Of a stretch of 64,000 nucleotides of DNA, positions 31,968 through 45,468 are shown in pieces (the first letter of the stretch is position 1; the number at the start of each line of letters is the position of its first letter). Origin of the DNA: Escherichia phage 235Ecol030PP. Position numbers and translations under genes: made by a program. The notes beneath the pieces were generated by a model that saw only the letters and a program-made list of their open reading frames with translations, had not been told where the DNA came from and ran no database searches. The stretch is taken from sequence record PP355091.1; one strand, written 5' to 3'.

Positions 31968-33650
31968 TTAAACCATTACAGTAAATCGACCGACTTTCTT
32001 CATTTGAAGATGCTGACCATATTCTTGCGGGTCATGGTCTTTATGCGAAATTATAAAGACATTAGTGTTTTTCATTGAATTTATAATATTAGCTACACCT
32101 TTAATACCTTCGGCATCAAATGACCCATCAAACACTTCATCGAGTATTAATGTACTAATACTAACACCAGATACGATAGAAGCAATATCACGCCAAGTAA
32201 ATAAAAGAGCAATATCGATTCGTGCCTTTTCACCTTCACTAAATGAAGCATAACTAAAATCTTCACGACCACGGGATTTAATTGTCTCATTAAATTCTTC
32301 ATCTAATGTAAACACATAATCCGCTTCCATTATTTTAAGATAATGGTTAATCTGCTTATTAAATAATGGAATGTACTTTTTAATAATAGCACCTTTAATA
32401 CCAGAATCTTTGAGCATATCAGTCAAAATTCCTCGGTGGTATTTTTCCATTACTAAATTAGTTTTTGTCTTAACAATTTTATCAAGTTCTTCTTGAAGCA
32501 GTGCTATTTCATCAGCATGGTCAATAAACTCAGAAGATGCTTTTTCTATAGCCGCTTTAACCTTTTTGGCTTTATCTACCGTCGTGATTAGAGATTGCTT
32601 TTTATTGCGAATATCATTTGCCAACGACTGCTGGGTTTTAATATTATCTCGGTATTCATCAACAAGAACTTTTAAATTATCACGATGTGTTGAAAGCTGT
32701 TCAAACGAATGCGTGCATTCAGAAACTTTATCTTTAATTTTAGAAACAACTTTATCACCGGAACTTAATTGTGACAAACAGGTTGGACATAATCCACCTT
32801 CGTGATACATATTAATGACTTTATTATACGAGTCAATTTTTGATTTAATTAAAACTGCTTCTTGACCGATTTTATTAAATGCATCAGTCGGGTCTTCATC
32901 TAAAACAATATTAACTAATCTTTCATTAGCTTCTTCTATTTCCGATTTTAGCGTTCTAGCTTCTTTTGCCAAATCATCATACATATTTTGAAGACGAGTA
33001 AGGTTGTCACCCGTTAATTTTTTCTGGCGTTCAACGTTATCATTATATATTTTAATTTGTTGGATAATACTATCTTTTTTAACATCAAGCACTTGGTTTT
33101 GTGAATTTAATTCACGTATTAGTGCTTTATTAAGCTTATCCATTTCAGCTAATGTTCCTACCTCAAGCAGGTCTTCCACAAGCTTTCTTCGCGCAGGGGT
33201 CGACAACCCCATGAAAGGGGTATACCCTGCTGTACCAAGGACAACAATCTGCTTGAAACTGGCATATGACATTCCGATAAGCTGTTCAAATTCTGCTTGG
33301 AAATCTTTACTGCTGGCAGATTCATTAAGACGTGTACCGTTAACGGTGATTTCAAAAACGTTCGGTTTTTGTCCTCTTTTGATATAGTACTTTTTCTCAT
33401 CATATTCCATCCACAGTTCAACTAAAAGTTCTTTCTTATTTGTGCTGTTTATTAATTGACCTTTCTTTACATCACGAAATGGCTTGCCAAAAAGCCCAAA
33501 TGTGATGGCTTCTAGCATAGTAGACTTACCACCGCCATTTCGTCCAGTAATAAGAGTTTTTTGAACCTTATCTAATTGAATGTCAACCCCATTTTGACCA
33601 ACTGACATTATATTTTTATATTTTACTCTATTAAGTTTAAAATTCTTCAC
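31968..33650 (-). CDS. 46: recombination nuclease ATPase subunit (Rad50/SbcC-like), 560 aa
   Basis: Walker A GRNGGGKST, central coiled coil with CPTC zinc hook, C-terminal ABC signature/D-loop. Confidence 0.9.
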   Translation of the reverse strand: MKNFKLNRVKYKNIMSVGQNGVDIQLDKVQKTLITGRNGGGKSTMLEAITFGLFGKPFRDVKKGQLINSTNKKELLVELWMEYDEKKYYIKRGQKPNVFEITVNGTRLNESASSKDFQAEFEQLIGMSYASFKQIVVLGTAGYTPFMGLSTPARRKLVEDLLEVGTLAEMDKLNKALIRELNSQNQVLDVKKDSIIQQIKIYNDNVERQKKLTGDNLTRLQNMYDDLAKEARTLKSEIEEANERLVNIVLDEDPTDAFNKIGQEAVLIKSKIDSYNKVINMYHEGGLCPTCLSQLSSGDKVVSKIKDKVSECTHSFEQLSTHRDNLKVLVDEYRDNIKTQQSLANDIRNKKQSLITTVDKAKKVKAAIEKASSEFIDHADEIALLQEELDKIVKTKTNLVMEKYHRGILTDMLKDSGIKGAIIKKYIPLFNKQINHYLKIMEADYVFTLDEEFNETIKSRGREDFSYASFSEGEKARIDIALLFTWRDIASIVSGVSISTLILDEVFDGSFDAEGIKGVANIINSMKNTNVFIISHKDHDPQEYGQHLQMKKVGRFTVMV

Positions 33651-33862
33651 AAAAGATTCCTTTTAATGTATCTTTTAGACCATTCTATCATATCATCATA
33701 ATCTAAAAAGTATTCATCAAATTCAGCCATGCAAACAACACCTTGTGCTGCTTTTGATGTGATATAAATTATTCCAACATATCTAGAATCTTCTTCGGTG
33801 TAATCAATATTTGCTATGAATTCATCGTTAATGTCAAATGTCGAAAACTTCACAGTATGCAT
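33647..33862 (-). CDS. hypothetical protein (start uncertain)
   Basis: ORF coupled to gene 46 start. Confidence 0.4.
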   Translation of the reverse strand: MHTVKFSTFDINDEFIANIDYTEEDSRYVGIIYITSKAAQGVVCMAEFDEYFLDYDDMIEWSKRYIKRNLL

Positions 33863-40508: not shown

Positions 40509-40724
40509 TTAAGCCTTTTTATCAAGAACAGCATTCAGCTTGTTAGTAATTTTATCCAGACGCTCATTAAACTCACTAGAAGATAAACCCTTTTCTGGAG
40601 AAATCAAACTAATCACGAAAAATATAGCAATAAAAGGAATAAGGAAAATAGCTCCAACTGCCATAAACAGAAAGAATGTTACAGTTGTAAGAAAATCAGC
40701 TAAACCTTTACGAAATTTATACAT
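40509..40724 (-). CDS. small membrane protein, 71 aa
   Basis: long hydrophobic stretch TVTFFLFMAVGAIFLIPFIAIFFVISLI. Confidence 0.55.
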   Translation of the reverse strand: MYKFRKGLADFLTTVTFFLFMAVGAIFLIPFIAIFFVISLISPEKGLSSSEFNERLDKITNKLNAVLDKKA

Positions 40725-40839
40725 ATTTTACCCTTAATTAATTAACCAAGCATTGATAAGCACTAAACTATACTGCGAATAAAATTCTGGACCAAAATGA
40801 AAAATCATATCATTTATAGTATCCATAATATAATTCAAT

Positions 40840-41310
40840 TTAATCATGTTTCCACACCCCATCGGTATTTGACCAAAGTCGCTGATTATCTGATCCTCGC
40901 CACAGCTTTTTAGTCGGAAGATTTTTCTCATACTTCCCATCAATAATAACATCAACATATTTAAGCATTTCTAGTTGTTTAATATCTTCAAACTTATATC
41001 CTGTCCACAACCAAATGCTTTTATTTGGATAAAGATTTTTTACTGTTTGAACAATGCAATGAATAACATCTCGATTATCAGGATAGAGAGGGTCACCTCC
41101 GGTTATAGTCAATCCTTCTATATAATCATTATTCAAACATTCAATTAATTGTTCTAGTGTTTCACCAGTGAATGGAATACCATTTCTAGCATTCCATGTT
41201 GATTTATTATAACACCCTTCGCATTTATGCAAACAACCTGTAACGAAAAGAACTGTCCTGCATCCAGGGCCATTCACAAAGCAGCACGGGTATATTCTGT
41301 CATAATTCAT
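40840..41310 (-). CDS. nrdG: anaerobic RNR activating protein (radical SAM), 156 aa
   Basis: CxxxCxxC cluster (CLHKCEGCYN), size 156 aa. Confidence 0.85.
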   Translation of the reverse strand: MNYDRIYPCCFVNGPGCRTVLFVTGCLHKCEGCYNKSTWNARNGIPFTGETLEQLIECLNNDYIEGLTITGGDPLYPDNRDVIHCIVQTVKNLYPNKSIWLWTGYKFEDIKQLEMLKYVDVIIDGKYEKNLPTKKLWRGSDNQRLWSNTDGVWKHD

Positions 41311-42139
41311 TTATATATTTCCAATTATAGCCTTCAACACTTTTACGTTCGCCATTTAAACATTTTAAAATATTTCCTTTGCTAGAAATATTAAAATATT
41401 TTGCTGCGTCTGGTATATAATTAAATGTTTTTAAAAGAACACCATCTTTATATGCGCCAAATAAATTAAGAGTATATTTTTCTCGAAGACGTTGATGTTT
41501 CCTTTTCATAACCTCAGGATTTGCATACGCCAACCTCAATGAATTTCTATGTTTTTCTTTTACTTCAGGTTTTTGCATTGCTAACTTAGTTAGCCTGGAA
41601 ATTTTATTTCTAACTTCGTCAGTTTTCATTGCATTTGACAAATTTAATAAAGTTTTATTTCTAACTTCAGGTTTTTGCATTGCTAACTTAGTTAGTTCTC
41701 TATGTCTTTTTCTAAAATCGTCATCCTTCCATATATTTTTCGATAATTTTGACATAGAGCGGTGAAATAATTCCTTTTCACCGGAATACAATTTAAGAAT
41801 TTCATCCAATTCATCTGTATTAAATCTATCGGTATTCGAGTTTATCATTCTATGAAAGGCATAACACATTTTACTATTACTTGTTTTAGCTAAATAGTAA
41901 TGAGCTAACGCGTGGTCATAATATGACAAATTAACAATATTCCATTTATCTGTTTTATATTCAGGAAATATAGATTTGGGAAGCACGTGATGTGCTTCCG
42001 TTTTTCCTTTTATTTTAGGATTATTATAATTTTTTGTTATCAAATCAACATATGACAATAGTAAATCATTATTTTCTTCAAATATTAAAGATAATTTATC
42101 ATTCACAAAATCGCAAGGATAAAATCTATCATAATTCAT
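41300..42139 (-). CDS. HNH homing endonuclease (Mob-like), 279 aa, with NUMOD3 repeats
   Basis: AHHVLP...N...DHALAH HNH motif; duplicated LTKLAMQKPEV units; first 13 codons mimic the nrdG N-terminus. Confidence 0.75.
   Translation of the reverse strand: MNYDRFYPCDFVNDKLSLIFEENNDLLLSYVDLITKNYNNPKIKGKTEAHHVLPKSIFPEYKTDKWNIVNLSYYDHALAHYYLAKTSNSKMCYAFHRMINSNTDRFNTDELDEILKLYSGEKELFHRSMSKLSKNIWKDDDFRKRHRELTKLAMQKPEVRNKTLLNLSNAMKTDEVRNKISRLTKLAMQKPEVKEKHRNSLRLAYANPEVMKRKHQRLREKYTLNLFGAYKDGVLLKTFNYIPDAAKYFNISSKGNILKCLNGERKSVEGYNWKYINEL
41566..41700. repeat. direct repeat of ~27 nt within the HNH gene (NUMOD3 repeat units)
   Basis: aggtttttgcattgctaacttagttag occurs twice about 103 nt apart. Confidence 0.8.
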
Positions 42140-43441
42140 TGGTGTTTAACCCTATGCATGATTTCTTTATTTTTACCGAGATTAAATCCGCGTTCGTTCG
42201 GGTTTCCAAGATATCCGCATGTTCTTCTTATGGTGTTCATCTTTTTAGGATCAGTTTCTCCACAAATAGAACAAACAAATCCGTTTTCAGTAGGAGTCAT
42301 TTCATGGGTACTTCCACATGTAAAACATTTATCTACTGGCATATTAACACCAAAATAATCTAAATGCTGTGCAGCATAATCCCATACGGCCTCAAGACCT
42401 TTTAGGTTATTTTTCATATCAGGAAGTTCAACATAAGAAATGTGACCACCTGTCGCAATGAAATGATATGGGGCTTCGCGAGAAATCTTTTCAAACGGAG
42501 TAATATTTTCTTCTACTGAAACATGGAAACTGTTAGTGTACCAGCCTTTATCAGTAACATCTTTTACACTTCCATATTTTTCTGTATCAAGTTTACAGAA
42601 GCGATAACAAAGGTTTTCAGCAGGAGTCGAATACAAACTAAAAGCAAACCCAGTTCTTTCAGTCCACTGTTTAAGACGAGCATTCATTTTAGTTAAAATT
42701 TCTTGTCCAATATCACGACCGACAAGAATATTCAATTCATGAATACCAATGTATCCTAAAGACACTGAACTTCTGCCATTTTTAAATAACTCAATTATAT
42801 CGTCATCAGGTTTAAGACGAACCCCGAATGCACCTTCTTGGTAAAGAATAGGAGCAACAGTCGCTTTAACTCCTTTTAAGGAACTAATTCTACACATCAA
42901 TGCTTCAAAACATAAATCCATTCGTTCATTGAACAATTCAACAAATTTCTGTTCATTGAACTGTGTTCCAATATAAGAATCTAACGCAATACGAGGAAGA
43001 TTCAATGTTACAACGCCAAGATTATTACGTCCATCAAGAATTTCATTACCAGTCGAATCTTTCCATACGCTCAAGAAACTACGGCAACCCATTGGAGAAA
43101 CAGGAATAGATGAACCGGTGATAGCTTTATTGTTCTTAGCTGAAATAATATCAGGATACATTCTTTTGCTTGCACACTTTAGAGCAAGCTGCTTAATATC
43201 ATAGTTCGGATCGTCTTTGTAAAGATTAACGCCTTCTTCGACGAACATAACAAGCTTAGGGAAAATAGGAGTTATCCCATCACGACCAAGACCTTTAATA
43301 CGATTTTTCAGAATTGCTTTCTGAATCATTCGTTCAGTCCAGTCAGTTCCCGTACCAAATGTAATTGTTACAAAAGGAGTCTGTCCGTTTGAACTGAAAA
43401 GTGTATTTACTTCATCATTATATTCAGCATGAGTCGCAAAT
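42136..43441 (-). CDS. nrdD: anaerobic ribonucleotide reductase NrdD, exon 2 (boundary approximate)
   Basis: C-terminal glycyl radical motif RRTCGYLG and CxxC zinc ribbon; 5' limit set by the upstream endonuclease stop. Confidence 0.8.
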
Positions 43442-44470
43442 TCATGCTCGTTTATATGAAACAACAAAATTTGGATAGTCCATAGATATGCAACGTTCTT
43501 TTATAGTGCTAGGATGAAAATTTAGCGCTTTAGCTGCTTCTATATAAGACGTATACTTAATACCGTCAACAACCACATATTCAGGAACTTTATGAATAGT
43601 AGTCTTAATACTCAAAACAAGAGGATGAGTTTCGACTTCACTTTCAGTGCAATTTAAATATTCCGCTGCTTTTTTAAAACTTCTAAAAGTTTTATTTTTA
43701 AGCTTTATCGATACTTGTTTTTTACTTTTTCGACTATTGATATTATTTTGCACATGTTCCTTAGATCTTCCGTTTTTAGCATAATATTCAGCTACAGAAG
43801 ATTTTATATTGTTTTTATGAGATTCGGATAACACTTTACCCTTATGAGCATCTCTTAATTTTTGAATATGTTCTTCAGTATCCGGATGCTTATAAAACTT
43901 TTTACCGCCTATGGATTTATTTAAACATTTTTTGCTATAAAAATATTTACGTATGACCTCTTCTTCATGTTTTAATGCATCTTTATAACTATCAAATGTT
44001 TTTAAAATTATCCATTTAGTAGGTGTATCAGTTTTTAAGCGTTCATTTATATACTTAGATGACGTTGTGTAAGTTTTCCAGTTTGTGGGCTTGTTTTTAA
44101 TTGTTCTAAATTTTTTATAACCGATATAAATGTCGCCATTAGAAAACTTAACTAAGTATGTAAATGCGTCTTTATCTTTTATTTTAGTACAACGTCTTTT
44201 TATCCATTTCATTGTTTCACCTCGTATTCATAAGATAATCTTATTTATACAAGATGACTGCTGCATGTCGCCATGCAGATTAGACTATATCTTCATCTTT
44301 CGATGCCGGCCGTTTCGAATAGCATTAGCTTCTATTCTACACCGCTACATTCATCACGGTTAGTCGTTAGGCATTTAGTTCAAAAGAACATTTAGCACGG
44401 GATTGTCTACTAGAGAGGTTCCCCGTTTAGACCGGTTTTACATGAGCCTGAATTAAATTAACTCATACGC
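43431..44470 (-). mobile_element. group I intron in nrdD carrying a GIY-YIG endonuclease ORF (boundaries approximate)
   Basis: nrdD frame interrupted; conserved group I core strings (AAGATATAGTC S-element-like, AAACGGGGAAC) at 44213-44452. Confidence 0.75.
43442..44212 (-). CDS. intron-encoded GIY-YIG homing endonuclease (I-TevII-like), 256 aa
   Basis: GDIYIGYKK GIY-YIG motif; located inside the nrdD intron. Confidence 0.75.
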   Translation of the reverse strand: MKWIKRRCTKIKDKDAFTYLVKFSNGDIYIGYKKFRTIKNKPTNWKTYTTSSKYINERLKTDTPTKWIILKTFDSYKDALKHEEEVIRKYFYSKKCLNKSIGGKKFYKHPDTEEHIQKLRDAHKGKVLSESHKNNIKSSVAEYYAKNGRSKEHVQNNINSRKSKKQVSIKLKNKTFRSFKKAAEYLNCTESEVETHPLVLSIKTTIHKVPEYVVVDGIKYTSYIEAAKALNFHPSTIKERCISMDYPNFVVSYKRA

Positions 44471-44998
44471 CTGAAACGCGTCATAGACATCTTTTTCTGT
44501 TTTAGATTGAGCATAATTCAACGCATCAGCGATTTGCCATTTTTCTGCATCCTCAATATGTTTTGCATAGGTGCGTTTAACATAAGGAGAAAGTACTTTA
44601 TCTACATTCGCAAAAGTCGTTCCGCCATATTGATGGGAAGCAACCTGTGCAGTAATTTGTGCCATAATTGCAGTAGCAACGCCAATTGATTTAGGAGTTT
44701 CAATCTGTGCATTACCGAGCTTAAATCCGTTCTCAAGCATTCCTTTTAAATCTACTAAACAGCAATTAGTAAATGGAAGAGCAGGGGAATAATCAATATC
44801 GTGCACGTGAATAATTCCGCTTTCATGCGCTTTCATAATAAAAGACGGGACCATATTTTTGGCAATGTGTTTAGACACAATACCAGCCATAAGGTCCCGT
44901 TGAGTTGGAAAAACACGAGAATCTTTATTAGCATTCTCGTTTAAAAGGTCTTTATTAGTTTTATGAATCAATCCTTCAATTTCTTTTTCAATTGTCAT
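44456..44998 (-). CDS. nrdD: NrdD exon 1 (3' limit approximate; in-frame stop at 44453-44455 lies inside the intron)
   Basis: N-terminal region of class III RNR; frame runs into intron sequence. Confidence 0.75.
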
Positions 44999-45468
44999 TT
45001 TAAACTCTTTCTAAGCTGCTTCTTAAATGAAGCTATTAACTGTGTTTTGGTGTCAGATTCATTATATTCAAATCCTCTTTGAAGCATCTCGGCCATCATT
45101 TCCTCTTTTCCTAAACGAGAAAATTCCTTTGATTTATCTCCAACAAAGTTAGGGTGAATATTATTTTGGGTGTAATCGGATTTTAAATAAGTAAGTAAAT
45201 TTTCTAACCATTCAAGATAATCAACACCTTGTCCCTTTAAGCCAGAACGATTAAATTTATGCTTCATTTGACCTTCTGCGGCATTGCAGAGATTACAAAG
45301 CAATCCACGCACCTTTCCTGCTTTTGGTCCATTTAATTCATGGTCATGGTCGAGGTGATTAGCTTGAACATCAGGATTTAGTTCTCGTTGGCAAATTAAG
45401 CATTTACCGTTTTGTGCATTATAAAATTTCTGTTTTTCTTCTTTATATAATTTGCCAGTCAATAACAT
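44995..45468 (-). CDS. 49: endonuclease VII (Holliday junction resolvase), 157 aa
   Basis: CxxC...HLDHDH...CNLCN zinc/His-Me motifs; size 157 aa. Confidence 0.85.
   Translation of the reverse strand: MLLTGKLYKEEKQKFYNAQNGKCLICQRELNPDVQANHLDHDHELNGPKAGKVRGLLCNLCNAAEGQMKHKFNRSGLKGQGVDYLEWLENLLTYLKSDYTQNNIHPNFVGDKSKEFSRLGKEEMMAEMLQRGFEYNESDTKTQLIASFKKQLRKSLK

Follow-up and report, generated by a model that had tools for sequence, protein, structure and literature searches.

Apparent capture of the nrdG start by a predicted HNH homing-endonuclease gene in a T4-like Escherichia phage

Free-standing endonuclease genes of phages are described as intergenic, with cleavage sites lying at a distance (PMC2988022). 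At the junction of nrdD and nrdG, T4 mobC is listed with 'activity not determined, target unknown' (PMC2988022), and segH replaces MobC at this site according to a preprint (bioRxiv 10.1101/2022.08.31.505936). The gene considered here is an open reading frame (ORF) of 279 amino acids at the T4 mobC locus (41300-42139, minus strand), predicted to encode a MobD-like HNH homing endonuclease, in a stretch of 64,000 nucleotides from Escherichia phage 235Ecol030PP (PP355091.1; the whole stretch is called the window below). The window is a Tequatrovirus (T4-like) genome, with the ORF inside a gp55-nrdH-nrdG-nrdD-gp49 block in which every gene is on the minus strand. A start-capture cassette architecture is shown by alignment with endonuclease-free relatives: an insert in frame within nrdG, a resident nrdG start that now serves the endonuclease, and, for nrdG, a rewritten substitute start in which the aspartate at codon 10 (Asp10) is cysteine (Cys10).

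Among the described systems, T4 mobC shares with the window ORF the locus, the orientation and an 11-nt overlap with the nrdG start, and its product shares the overall build of HNH domain, linker and putative C-terminal GYxWKY helix-turn-helix; it differs in length (210 vs 279 amino acids), in the absence of the 17-residue repeat array, in its start (MNYDRIY, a generic Mob N-terminus), and in that T4 nrdG keeps Asp10. SegH (T6, RB3) occupies the same hotspot with the same Cys10 nrdG allele downstream, but is a GIY-YIG protein whose gene has its own start codons (MHRYYIIYK), leaves the nrdG start unduplicated and stands alongside a divergent nrdD 3' end. The closest sequence relatives are T4 MobD and the gene of KIT03/T2 type (46.1/46), at 32-36% over ~180-220 residues and with the same KTEAHHVLPKSIFPEY motif; the T4 MobD group differs in its target gene, and T4 MobD and the member in Mosigvirus G2469 are intergenic, each with a start codon of its own.

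Other arrangements resemble the cassette in design. Aeh1 mobE in nrdA and T4 mobA with the gene 60/39 bypass cassette are likewise free-standing HNH genes in a coding region, in cassettes that keep the host function (PMC2988022; bioRxiv 10.1101/2022.08.31.505936); there, however, the host protein is split or ribosomes bypass the insert, whereas nrdG stays whole and only 13 codons are duplicated. Endonucleases of introns and inteins (I-TevI, I-TevII) also disrupt their own conserved coding site while host function is preserved; the window cassette differs in that splicing is replaced by a duplicated, rewritten gene start and a translation restart. In fungal mitochondria, endonucleases are reportedly fused in frame to a gene whose end is duplicated, in Allomyces atp6 (a finding credited to Paquin et al. 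in 1994) and Ophiostoma rps3 (credited to Sethuraman et al. in 2009). These cassettes, an endonuclease ORF with an in-frame replacement of the displaced gene end, are the nearest conceptual analogues, but they concern the 3' end, GIY-YIG or LAGLIDADG enzymes and organelles, in contrast to the 5' end, captured initiation region, HNH enzyme and phage seen here. The rps3 endonuclease fusion is mentioned in PMC7902536. A literature search found no duplicated nrdG start or insertion design of this kind for free-standing homing endonucleases of phages, although the work of Sandegren et al. 2005 on segH and mobC may hold an earlier description.

The initial annotation of the window had proposed that the first 13 codons of the endonuclease copy the nrdG N-terminus, at about 80% identity over ~40 nt, and that insertion at the 5' end of nrdG had duplicated the gene start and let the endonuclease borrow its initiation region. 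The resemblance is borne out: the ORF starts MNYDRFYPCDFVN and the downstream nrdG MNYDRIYPCCFVN, their first 40 nt are identical at 32 positions, in register, and a repeat search returned 41 nt at 80% identity (41271-41311 and 42100-42140, spacing 829). No other of the 17,766 pairings of ORF starts in the window scores as high (mean 13.0 of 40, standard deviation 2.9, runner-up 27), with a binomial chance probability of ~1e-11.

Which of the two copies is native is seen at the empty sites. A megablast query of positions 40800-42400 returned 836 phage records with the locus (carrier counts are set against 836-890 records), with phage BF15 as the best match (98.6%); ~800 of the 836 cover only ~51% of the query, the ORF being absent from most relatives. 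At the empty sites of KAW1E185 and of three IMG/VR loci (L015, L016, L022), nrdD is followed by CACCAATGAATTATGATAGATTTTATCCTTGCGATTTTGTGAATG up to the junction and by GCCCTGGATGC, beginning GCCCTGG, after it. The window is identical to these E. coli-type sites, nrdD flank included, up to the junction, and then continues with ATAAATTATC. Because the nrdG of the empty sites starts with the exact first 40 nt of the ORF, the upstream copy is the resident nrdG start. This captured 'A' copy (42100-42139, minus), identified by its identity to the empty sites, provides the endonuclease with its start codon and codons 1-13.

The inserted cassette (41271-42099, minus; 829 bp, equal to the repeat spacing) has exact boundaries against the empty sites and consists of endonuclease codons 14-279 and a replacement nrdG 5' end. 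Its insertion point is not intergenic; it lies in frame after nt 40 (codon 14) of nrdG. Having no start codon of its own, the cassette joins the endonuclease body at its left end to the resident nrdG ATG and 13 codons, and its right end supplies the new 5' end with which an intact nrdG is rebuilt downstream. Insertion with duplication of the gene start and borrowing of the initiation region is thus supported by the endonuclease-free relatives, which define the boundaries to the nucleotide; what changes is the direction of the copying, as on these alignments the native copy is the upstream one, and the downstream copy is rewritten and travels with the insert.

The rewritten 'B' copy (41271-41310, minus) is cassette-borne and forms codons 1-13 of the functional nrdG. 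It differs from A-type nrdG at nt 12, 16, 18, 21, 24 and 28-30, i.e. 8 changes in 19 nt, which exchange Phe6 for Ile and Asp10 for Cys (GAT to TGC). The remaining 430 nt of the 471-nt nrdG are near-identical to empty-site alleles (~1-2% divergence; nt 55-57 differ and are also variable among A-type genes). The gene as a whole (40840-41310, minus), the anaerobic ribonucleotide reductase activase, is intact at 156 amino acids (Pfam Fer4_12, E=4.6e-48, and Radical_SAM) and 96-97% identical to nrdG at the empty sites. Codon 10 (41281-41283, minus), TGC where other alleles have GAT or GAC, lies 10 nt 5' of the insertion point and is a candidate immunity determinant. All three of its bases are changed, and Asp was found in 28 of 28 nrdG starts read in IMG/VR, none of them behind this endonuclease, and in T4. 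A true target-site duplication at each homing event, which concordance between the copies at position 36 would indicate, was rejected, as the copies are discordant there in BF15, Ozark, Ec_MI-02, TB004 and SA20RB.

The ORF is present in 31 records, 21 of them E. coli-type HNH carriers and ten Klebsiella (Jiaodavirus-like) phages with an ortholog of ~87% amino-acid identity. In the Klebsiella lineage nrdG is preceded by a 77-codon ORF absent from E. coli phages, and at empty sites (L032, L041) it starts ATGAATTTCGACAGAATCTACCCTTCTGACTTTGTGAATG, followed after the junction by GCCC (protein MNFDRIYPSDFVN). The endonuclease of Roth04, Mexia and ValerieMcCarty03 starts exactly with ATGAATTTCGACAGAATCTACCCTTCTGACTTTGTGAATG and continues with ATAAGCTATC, and that of UTI-K1 deviates by one synonymous difference (codon 10 GAT); the downstream nrdG of each of these four encodes MNYDRIYPCCFVN once more. 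Since the endonuclease start follows the local nrdG allele in both lineages, the first 13 codons belong to the occupied genome, and what moves with the cassette is the rewritten copy. In 13 of 13 carriers examined (8 E. coli-type, 5 Klebsiella-type), the upstream copy has Asp10 and the downstream one Cys10, with the MNYDRIYPCCFVN signature kept throughout, and the similarity of the two starts at the nucleotide level was seen in every carrier examined. The idea that the first 110 nt of nrdG were co-converted between the lineages was considered and rejected: the Klebsiella-type empty site L041 is equally similar, and the stretch is simply conserved.

Between the lineages the endonuclease has diverged by 0.98 synonymous substitutions per site (dS) and 0.07 nonsynonymous ones (dN; dN/dS 0.07, vs the Klebsiella-phage ortholog), which marks strong purifying selection on the ORF and argues for a working protein. 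The flanking nrdG and nrdD show dS ~1.6 and dN 0.17-0.25, and the lower divergence of the endonuclease than of its flanks indicates transfer between lineages. Intact copies were found in 12 of the 13 carriers examined. In BF15 (L056), the closest relative, a 1-nt insertion stops the ORF after 38 codons, which fits decay of the endonuclease gene. IMG/VR yielded no full ortholog, only empty sites and one distant relative, and a large protein database holds only 7 clusters for the ORF.

Both ends of the endonuclease gene overlap a neighbour. The stop codon of nrdD and the start of the endonuclease share ATGA (42136-42139, minus); this is the original nrdD-nrdG coupling junction, identical at empty sites, where the ATG is that of nrdG. 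The nrdD 3' exon upstream (42136-43467, minus; Pfam NRDD, E=6.6e-123; nrdD-B in phage PST) thereby has its stop coupled to the captured start. At the other end, the 11-nt overlap ATGAATTATGA (41300-41310, minus) places the TGA stop of the endonuclease within nrdG codons 3-4, the new nrdG ATG being 8 nt before that stop. No Shine-Dalgarno-like sequence was found close upstream of the downstream nrdG ATG; the captured initiation site of the Klebsiella lineage has a good Shine-Dalgarno sequence, TAAGG. A true start of the ORF further downstream was checked in the Roth04 ortholog, in which no ATG, GTG or TTG occurs between codons 12 and 51, upstream of the catalytic histidines, so that translation must begin inside the captured segment. 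If the captured start is used, the endonuclease peptide would begin MNYDRFYPCDFVNDK, with or without the initiator Met. In database entries, the UTI-K1 endonuclease is labelled as class III ribonucleotide reductase activating protein, and nrdG of Mexia and Ozark is annotated from an internal start, 78 nt short.

The assignment of the ORF product draws on PHROG matches, on the label 'homing endonuclease/mobC' in phage PST and on dN/dS. The PHROG matches include 655 ('homing endonuclease', E=3.8e-36) and 12434 ('HNH endonuclease', E=1.9e-15). The HNH (beta-beta-alpha-metal) motif, EAHHVLPKS...NIVNL...HALAH, spans residues 47-84 (41888-42001, minus), and H50, H51, P54, N67, H76 and H80 are invariant in an alignment with T4 MobC, T4 MobD and paralogs. 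BLASTP against T4 MobC gave E=2e-7 over the motif (23 of 60 identities, 38%), and an AlphaFold2 model predicts a beta-hairpin with strands at 47-51 and 68-72 and a helix at 73-84 with a predicted local distance difference test (pLDDT) score >85. A PDB sequence search with the ORF gave no match. Orthology with T4 mobC, as implied by the label in PST, was rejected: identity is limited to those 23 of 60 motif positions, and the orthologs of MobC (>=95% identity) make up their own set of 32 records. The best T4 match of the ORF is MobD, at 32%. Paralogs in the subfamily start differently (G2469, MTKTDYE; Kha5h, MDINFK; P0004, MKDLLK). That of Kha5h (L048, ~1990-2790) is a full-length, unannotated HNH gene (MDINFKSALKEKF...KTEAHHILPK...) between gene 56 and soc, the site of T4 segF.

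Residues 125-226 (41462-41767, minus) form six tandem 17-residue (51-nt) helical modules, presumably a DNA-tracking linker. The internal direct repeat encoding LTKLAMQKPEV twice, first noted as 27 nt, is real and somewhat longer: 32 nt are exact (41562-41593 and 41664-41695, 102 nt apart) within 42 nt at 90%. The metagenomic variant P0003 lacks the 34 residues between the 32-nt repeats, which fits gene decay. The two copies share lineage-specific synonymous bases (TTA...AAA twice in the window, CTA...AAG twice in Roth04, mixed in PST), which suggests gene conversion between them. Residues 228-278 (41306-41458, minus) resemble the helix-turn-helix of NUMOD/I-HmuI type and are a putative DNA-binding domain; Pfam scores are sub-threshold (PF22083, 21.1 bits, cutoff 27; NUMOD1, 17.3, cutoff 22.8), PHROG 7140 ('intron encoded nuclease') matches at E=4.5e-6, and the GYxWKY end is common to T4 MobC and P0007.

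A parallel was found at gene 46, upstream of which the closest paralogs of the ORF (35% identity) lie in T6, KIT03 and others. The KIT03 paralog begins GTGAAGAATTTTAAACTT, the first 6 codons of native gene 46, followed by GAC. The window itself is an empty site for this KIT03/T2-type gene (~33641, within ~33620-33660, minus), with gene 46 starting GTGAAGAATTTTAAACTT and continuing AATAGAG. In KIT03 the downstream gene 46 is rewritten, ATGAAATCATTTAAACTT preceding the same AATAGAG; its codon 3 is fully substituted (AAT to TCA), 9 nt 5' of the junction, and nrdG codon 10 is 10 nt from its own. In all, 69 records have the rewritten start; among them are T2 and RB51, with degenerate copies of the paralog. 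Read from these alignments, the KIT03 paralog is an independent case in which the resident gene 46 start has passed to the endonuclease and the replacement start is rewritten. Start capture is not universal in the subfamily, as the Mosigvirus G2469 member at the same gene 46 site has its own start. T4 mobC was considered as a second case at nrdG and rejected: MNYxx(I/V)YxNL is generic to MobC, MobD and MobE, and homologs elsewhere align from residue 1.

At the nrdD/nrdG junction, three unrelated endonuclease genes were found in different phages, namely T4-type mobC (32 records), segH (T6, RB3, PP01) and the HNH gene (31), which marks it as a contested hotspot. The Cys10 (B-type) nrdG allele occurs in 67 records: behind the HNH gene, behind segH, and in two endonuclease-free sequences, U5 (L045) and ESh24 (L046). 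The latter two could reflect precise loss of the endonuclease gene through the 11-12 nt of ATGAATTATGA homology; their Cys10 is also consistent with co-conversion without the gene. In T6 (L044, 1440-1520), segH starts ATGCATAGG, and the same 9 nt encode Met-His-Arg of native nrdD, 21 nt before its stop; the nrdD end of T6 is divergent (KEMVKRVKHA vs KEIMHRVKHQ). The match may be fortuitous, or segH may have captured part of the nrdD 3' end in a comparable way.

The reading that we favour, with a probability of roughly 65%, combines a captured nrdG start, target cleavage at the insertion point, immunity through the rewritten patch and re-initiated nrdG translation; cleavage and immunity are what we infer from the architecture. 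An active or recently active HNH homing endonuclease would recognise, in naive nrdG, a 5'-end sequence that straddles the insertion point, from about codon 10 to beyond codon 14 (about codon 17), and would nick or cut nearby. Recombinational repair would then copy the cassette in, with homology provided on the left by the nrdD end and nrdG start and on the right by nrdG. Carriers would be doubly immune, the upstream copy having the endonuclease body in place of the right half-site and the downstream copy having a mutated left half-site (GAT to TGC). Coupled to nrdD, the initiation region taken over from nrdG would drive translation of the endonuclease. As nrdG has no nearby Shine-Dalgarno sequence, it is proposed to re-initiate at the 11-nt stop/start overlap, which would tie nrdG expression to read-through of the selfish gene; mutations that end the endonuclease early would be polar on nrdG.

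Several points weigh against this reading. The chief one is that the Cys10 allele also occurs behind the unrelated GIY-YIG gene segH (T6, RB3, PP01) and in U5 and ESh24; its presence behind segH makes it ambiguous where the allele came from and against what it protects, and it could be a SegH-escape allele or a hitch-hiking allele of the donor. Across the wider activase superfamily position 10 varies (PFL-AE has Gly), and Asp10 to Cys may be harmless drift. SegH reportedly cuts carrier DNA as well, a finding credited to Sandegren et al. in 2005. BF15, a close relative with a frameshifted copy, is viable. The earlier designation of the ORF as an HNH endonuclease holds for the motif and for the homology to MobC and MobD; it does not extend to Pfam, in which no HNH family was reached by the whole ORF (E<=0.01) or by residues 37-106 (E<=10); the only HNH profile that matches directly is PHROG 12434. 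T4 MobC itself passes PF01844 (27.6 bits vs cutoff 21.4). Fold searches recovered no HNH structure. Finally, the cleavage sites of characterised free-standing phage endonucleases usually lie hundreds of bp away from the endonuclease gene (PMC2988022).

The strongest competitor, which we consider possible though distinctly less probable, accepts the architecture and takes the rewritten patch as an older allele, selected by SegH or stemming from the donor, that hitch-hiked by co-conversion while the HNH enzyme cuts at a distance. It accounts for the presence of the B allele in segH phages and at two empty sites and for an excess of B-type records (67) over E. coli-type HNH carriers (21), and seg/mob enzymes as a rule cut at a distance (PMC2988022). 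It fits less well with the gene 46 paralog, where the same tight patch lies 9-10 nt from the junction and no segH-type gene occurs in the gene 46 loci examined, with the concentration of 8 changes in 19 nt against ~1-2% divergence across the rest of nrdG, and with Cys10 being kept in both cassette lineages despite diverged neighbouring synonymous sites. The view of the ORF as an inert relic, in which illegitimate recombination long ago duplicated the nrdG start and fused it to a dead endonuclease and the arrangement merely persists, is improbable. The frameshifted BF15 copy, the deletion variant P0003 and the lack of demonstrated activity of T4 mobC at the same locus (PMC2988022) would agree with it; a dN/dS of 0.07 over dS ~1, the intact state of 12 of 13 copies, and divergence between lineages below that of the flanking genes would not, and a match of the upstream copy to the local nrdG allele in each of two lineages calls for recombination into naive genomes more than once.

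Hardly any weight is left for the view that the N-terminal resemblance is a family trait or convergence, as it appears to be for T4 MobC, or that the true start lies downstream of the copy. T4 MobC and MobD both start MNY..(I/V)Y.NL, and MobC homologs at unrelated loci align from residue 1; the window ORF, however, belongs to a different subfamily, whose paralogs in G2469, Kha5h and P0004 start differently, its first 40 nt and flank are identical to empty-site nrdG, which already contradicts a family trait, and the copy changes with the host lineage. A downstream start is opposed by Roth04, which has no alternative start before the catalytic histidines.

The surrounding block has the same layout in the annotation of phage PST (nrdG, 'mobC', nrdD-B, I-TevII, nrdD-A, gp49). 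In the window nrdD consists of two pieces identified by Pfam (42136-43467 and 44453-44998) with a GIY-YIG ORF between them; ~985 bp interrupt the gene, and the GIY-YIG ORF (43442-44212, minus), labelled I-TevII in PST, is only 56% identical to T4 I-TevII. An Rfam search at gathering thresholds of 40700-45100 found no RNA family or group I intron model, a weak negative given that the nrdD intron was also missed, and a promoter and terminator scan returned nothing above shuffled expectation. At 41979-41999 a perfect 8-bp stem with a 5-nt loop (sense strand GGAAGCAC ATCAC GTGCTTCC) lies exactly over the catalytic TEAHHVLP codons; on the antisense strand a T-run follows it, with a terminator-like score, which could limit expression, as reported for mobE, or be chance.

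Intergenic endonucleases that cut at a distance pose two questions, how cutting of the own genome is avoided and how expression is achieved without disturbing neighbouring genes, and the cassette bears on both. It suggests a third solution beside introns and inteins: to insert inside the target, take over the start of the target for the endonuclease, and rebuild the host gene from a rewritten duplicate. It also yields a precise prediction of the recognition site, nrdG codon 10 to ~17, with Asp10 to Cys as the escape change, and the duplicated start explains the misannotation of the endonuclease as NrdG activase and of nrdG from internal starts. More tentatively, and with somewhat less than even confidence, a subfamily of MobD-like HNH genes may be regarded as cassettes that lack a start and home into conserved genes (nrdG, gene 46) at their first codons, take the start codon and initiation region and supply a rewritten, cleavage-resistant start, so that the insertion point would be the recognition site, with self-immunity of the kind known from introns and inteins but no splicing, and translation of the host gene would depend on the selfish gene being translated in full, as a retention device. 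Insertion by start capture would be a clear-cut principle of design that lends itself to testing, within a class of selfish elements already studied in depth.

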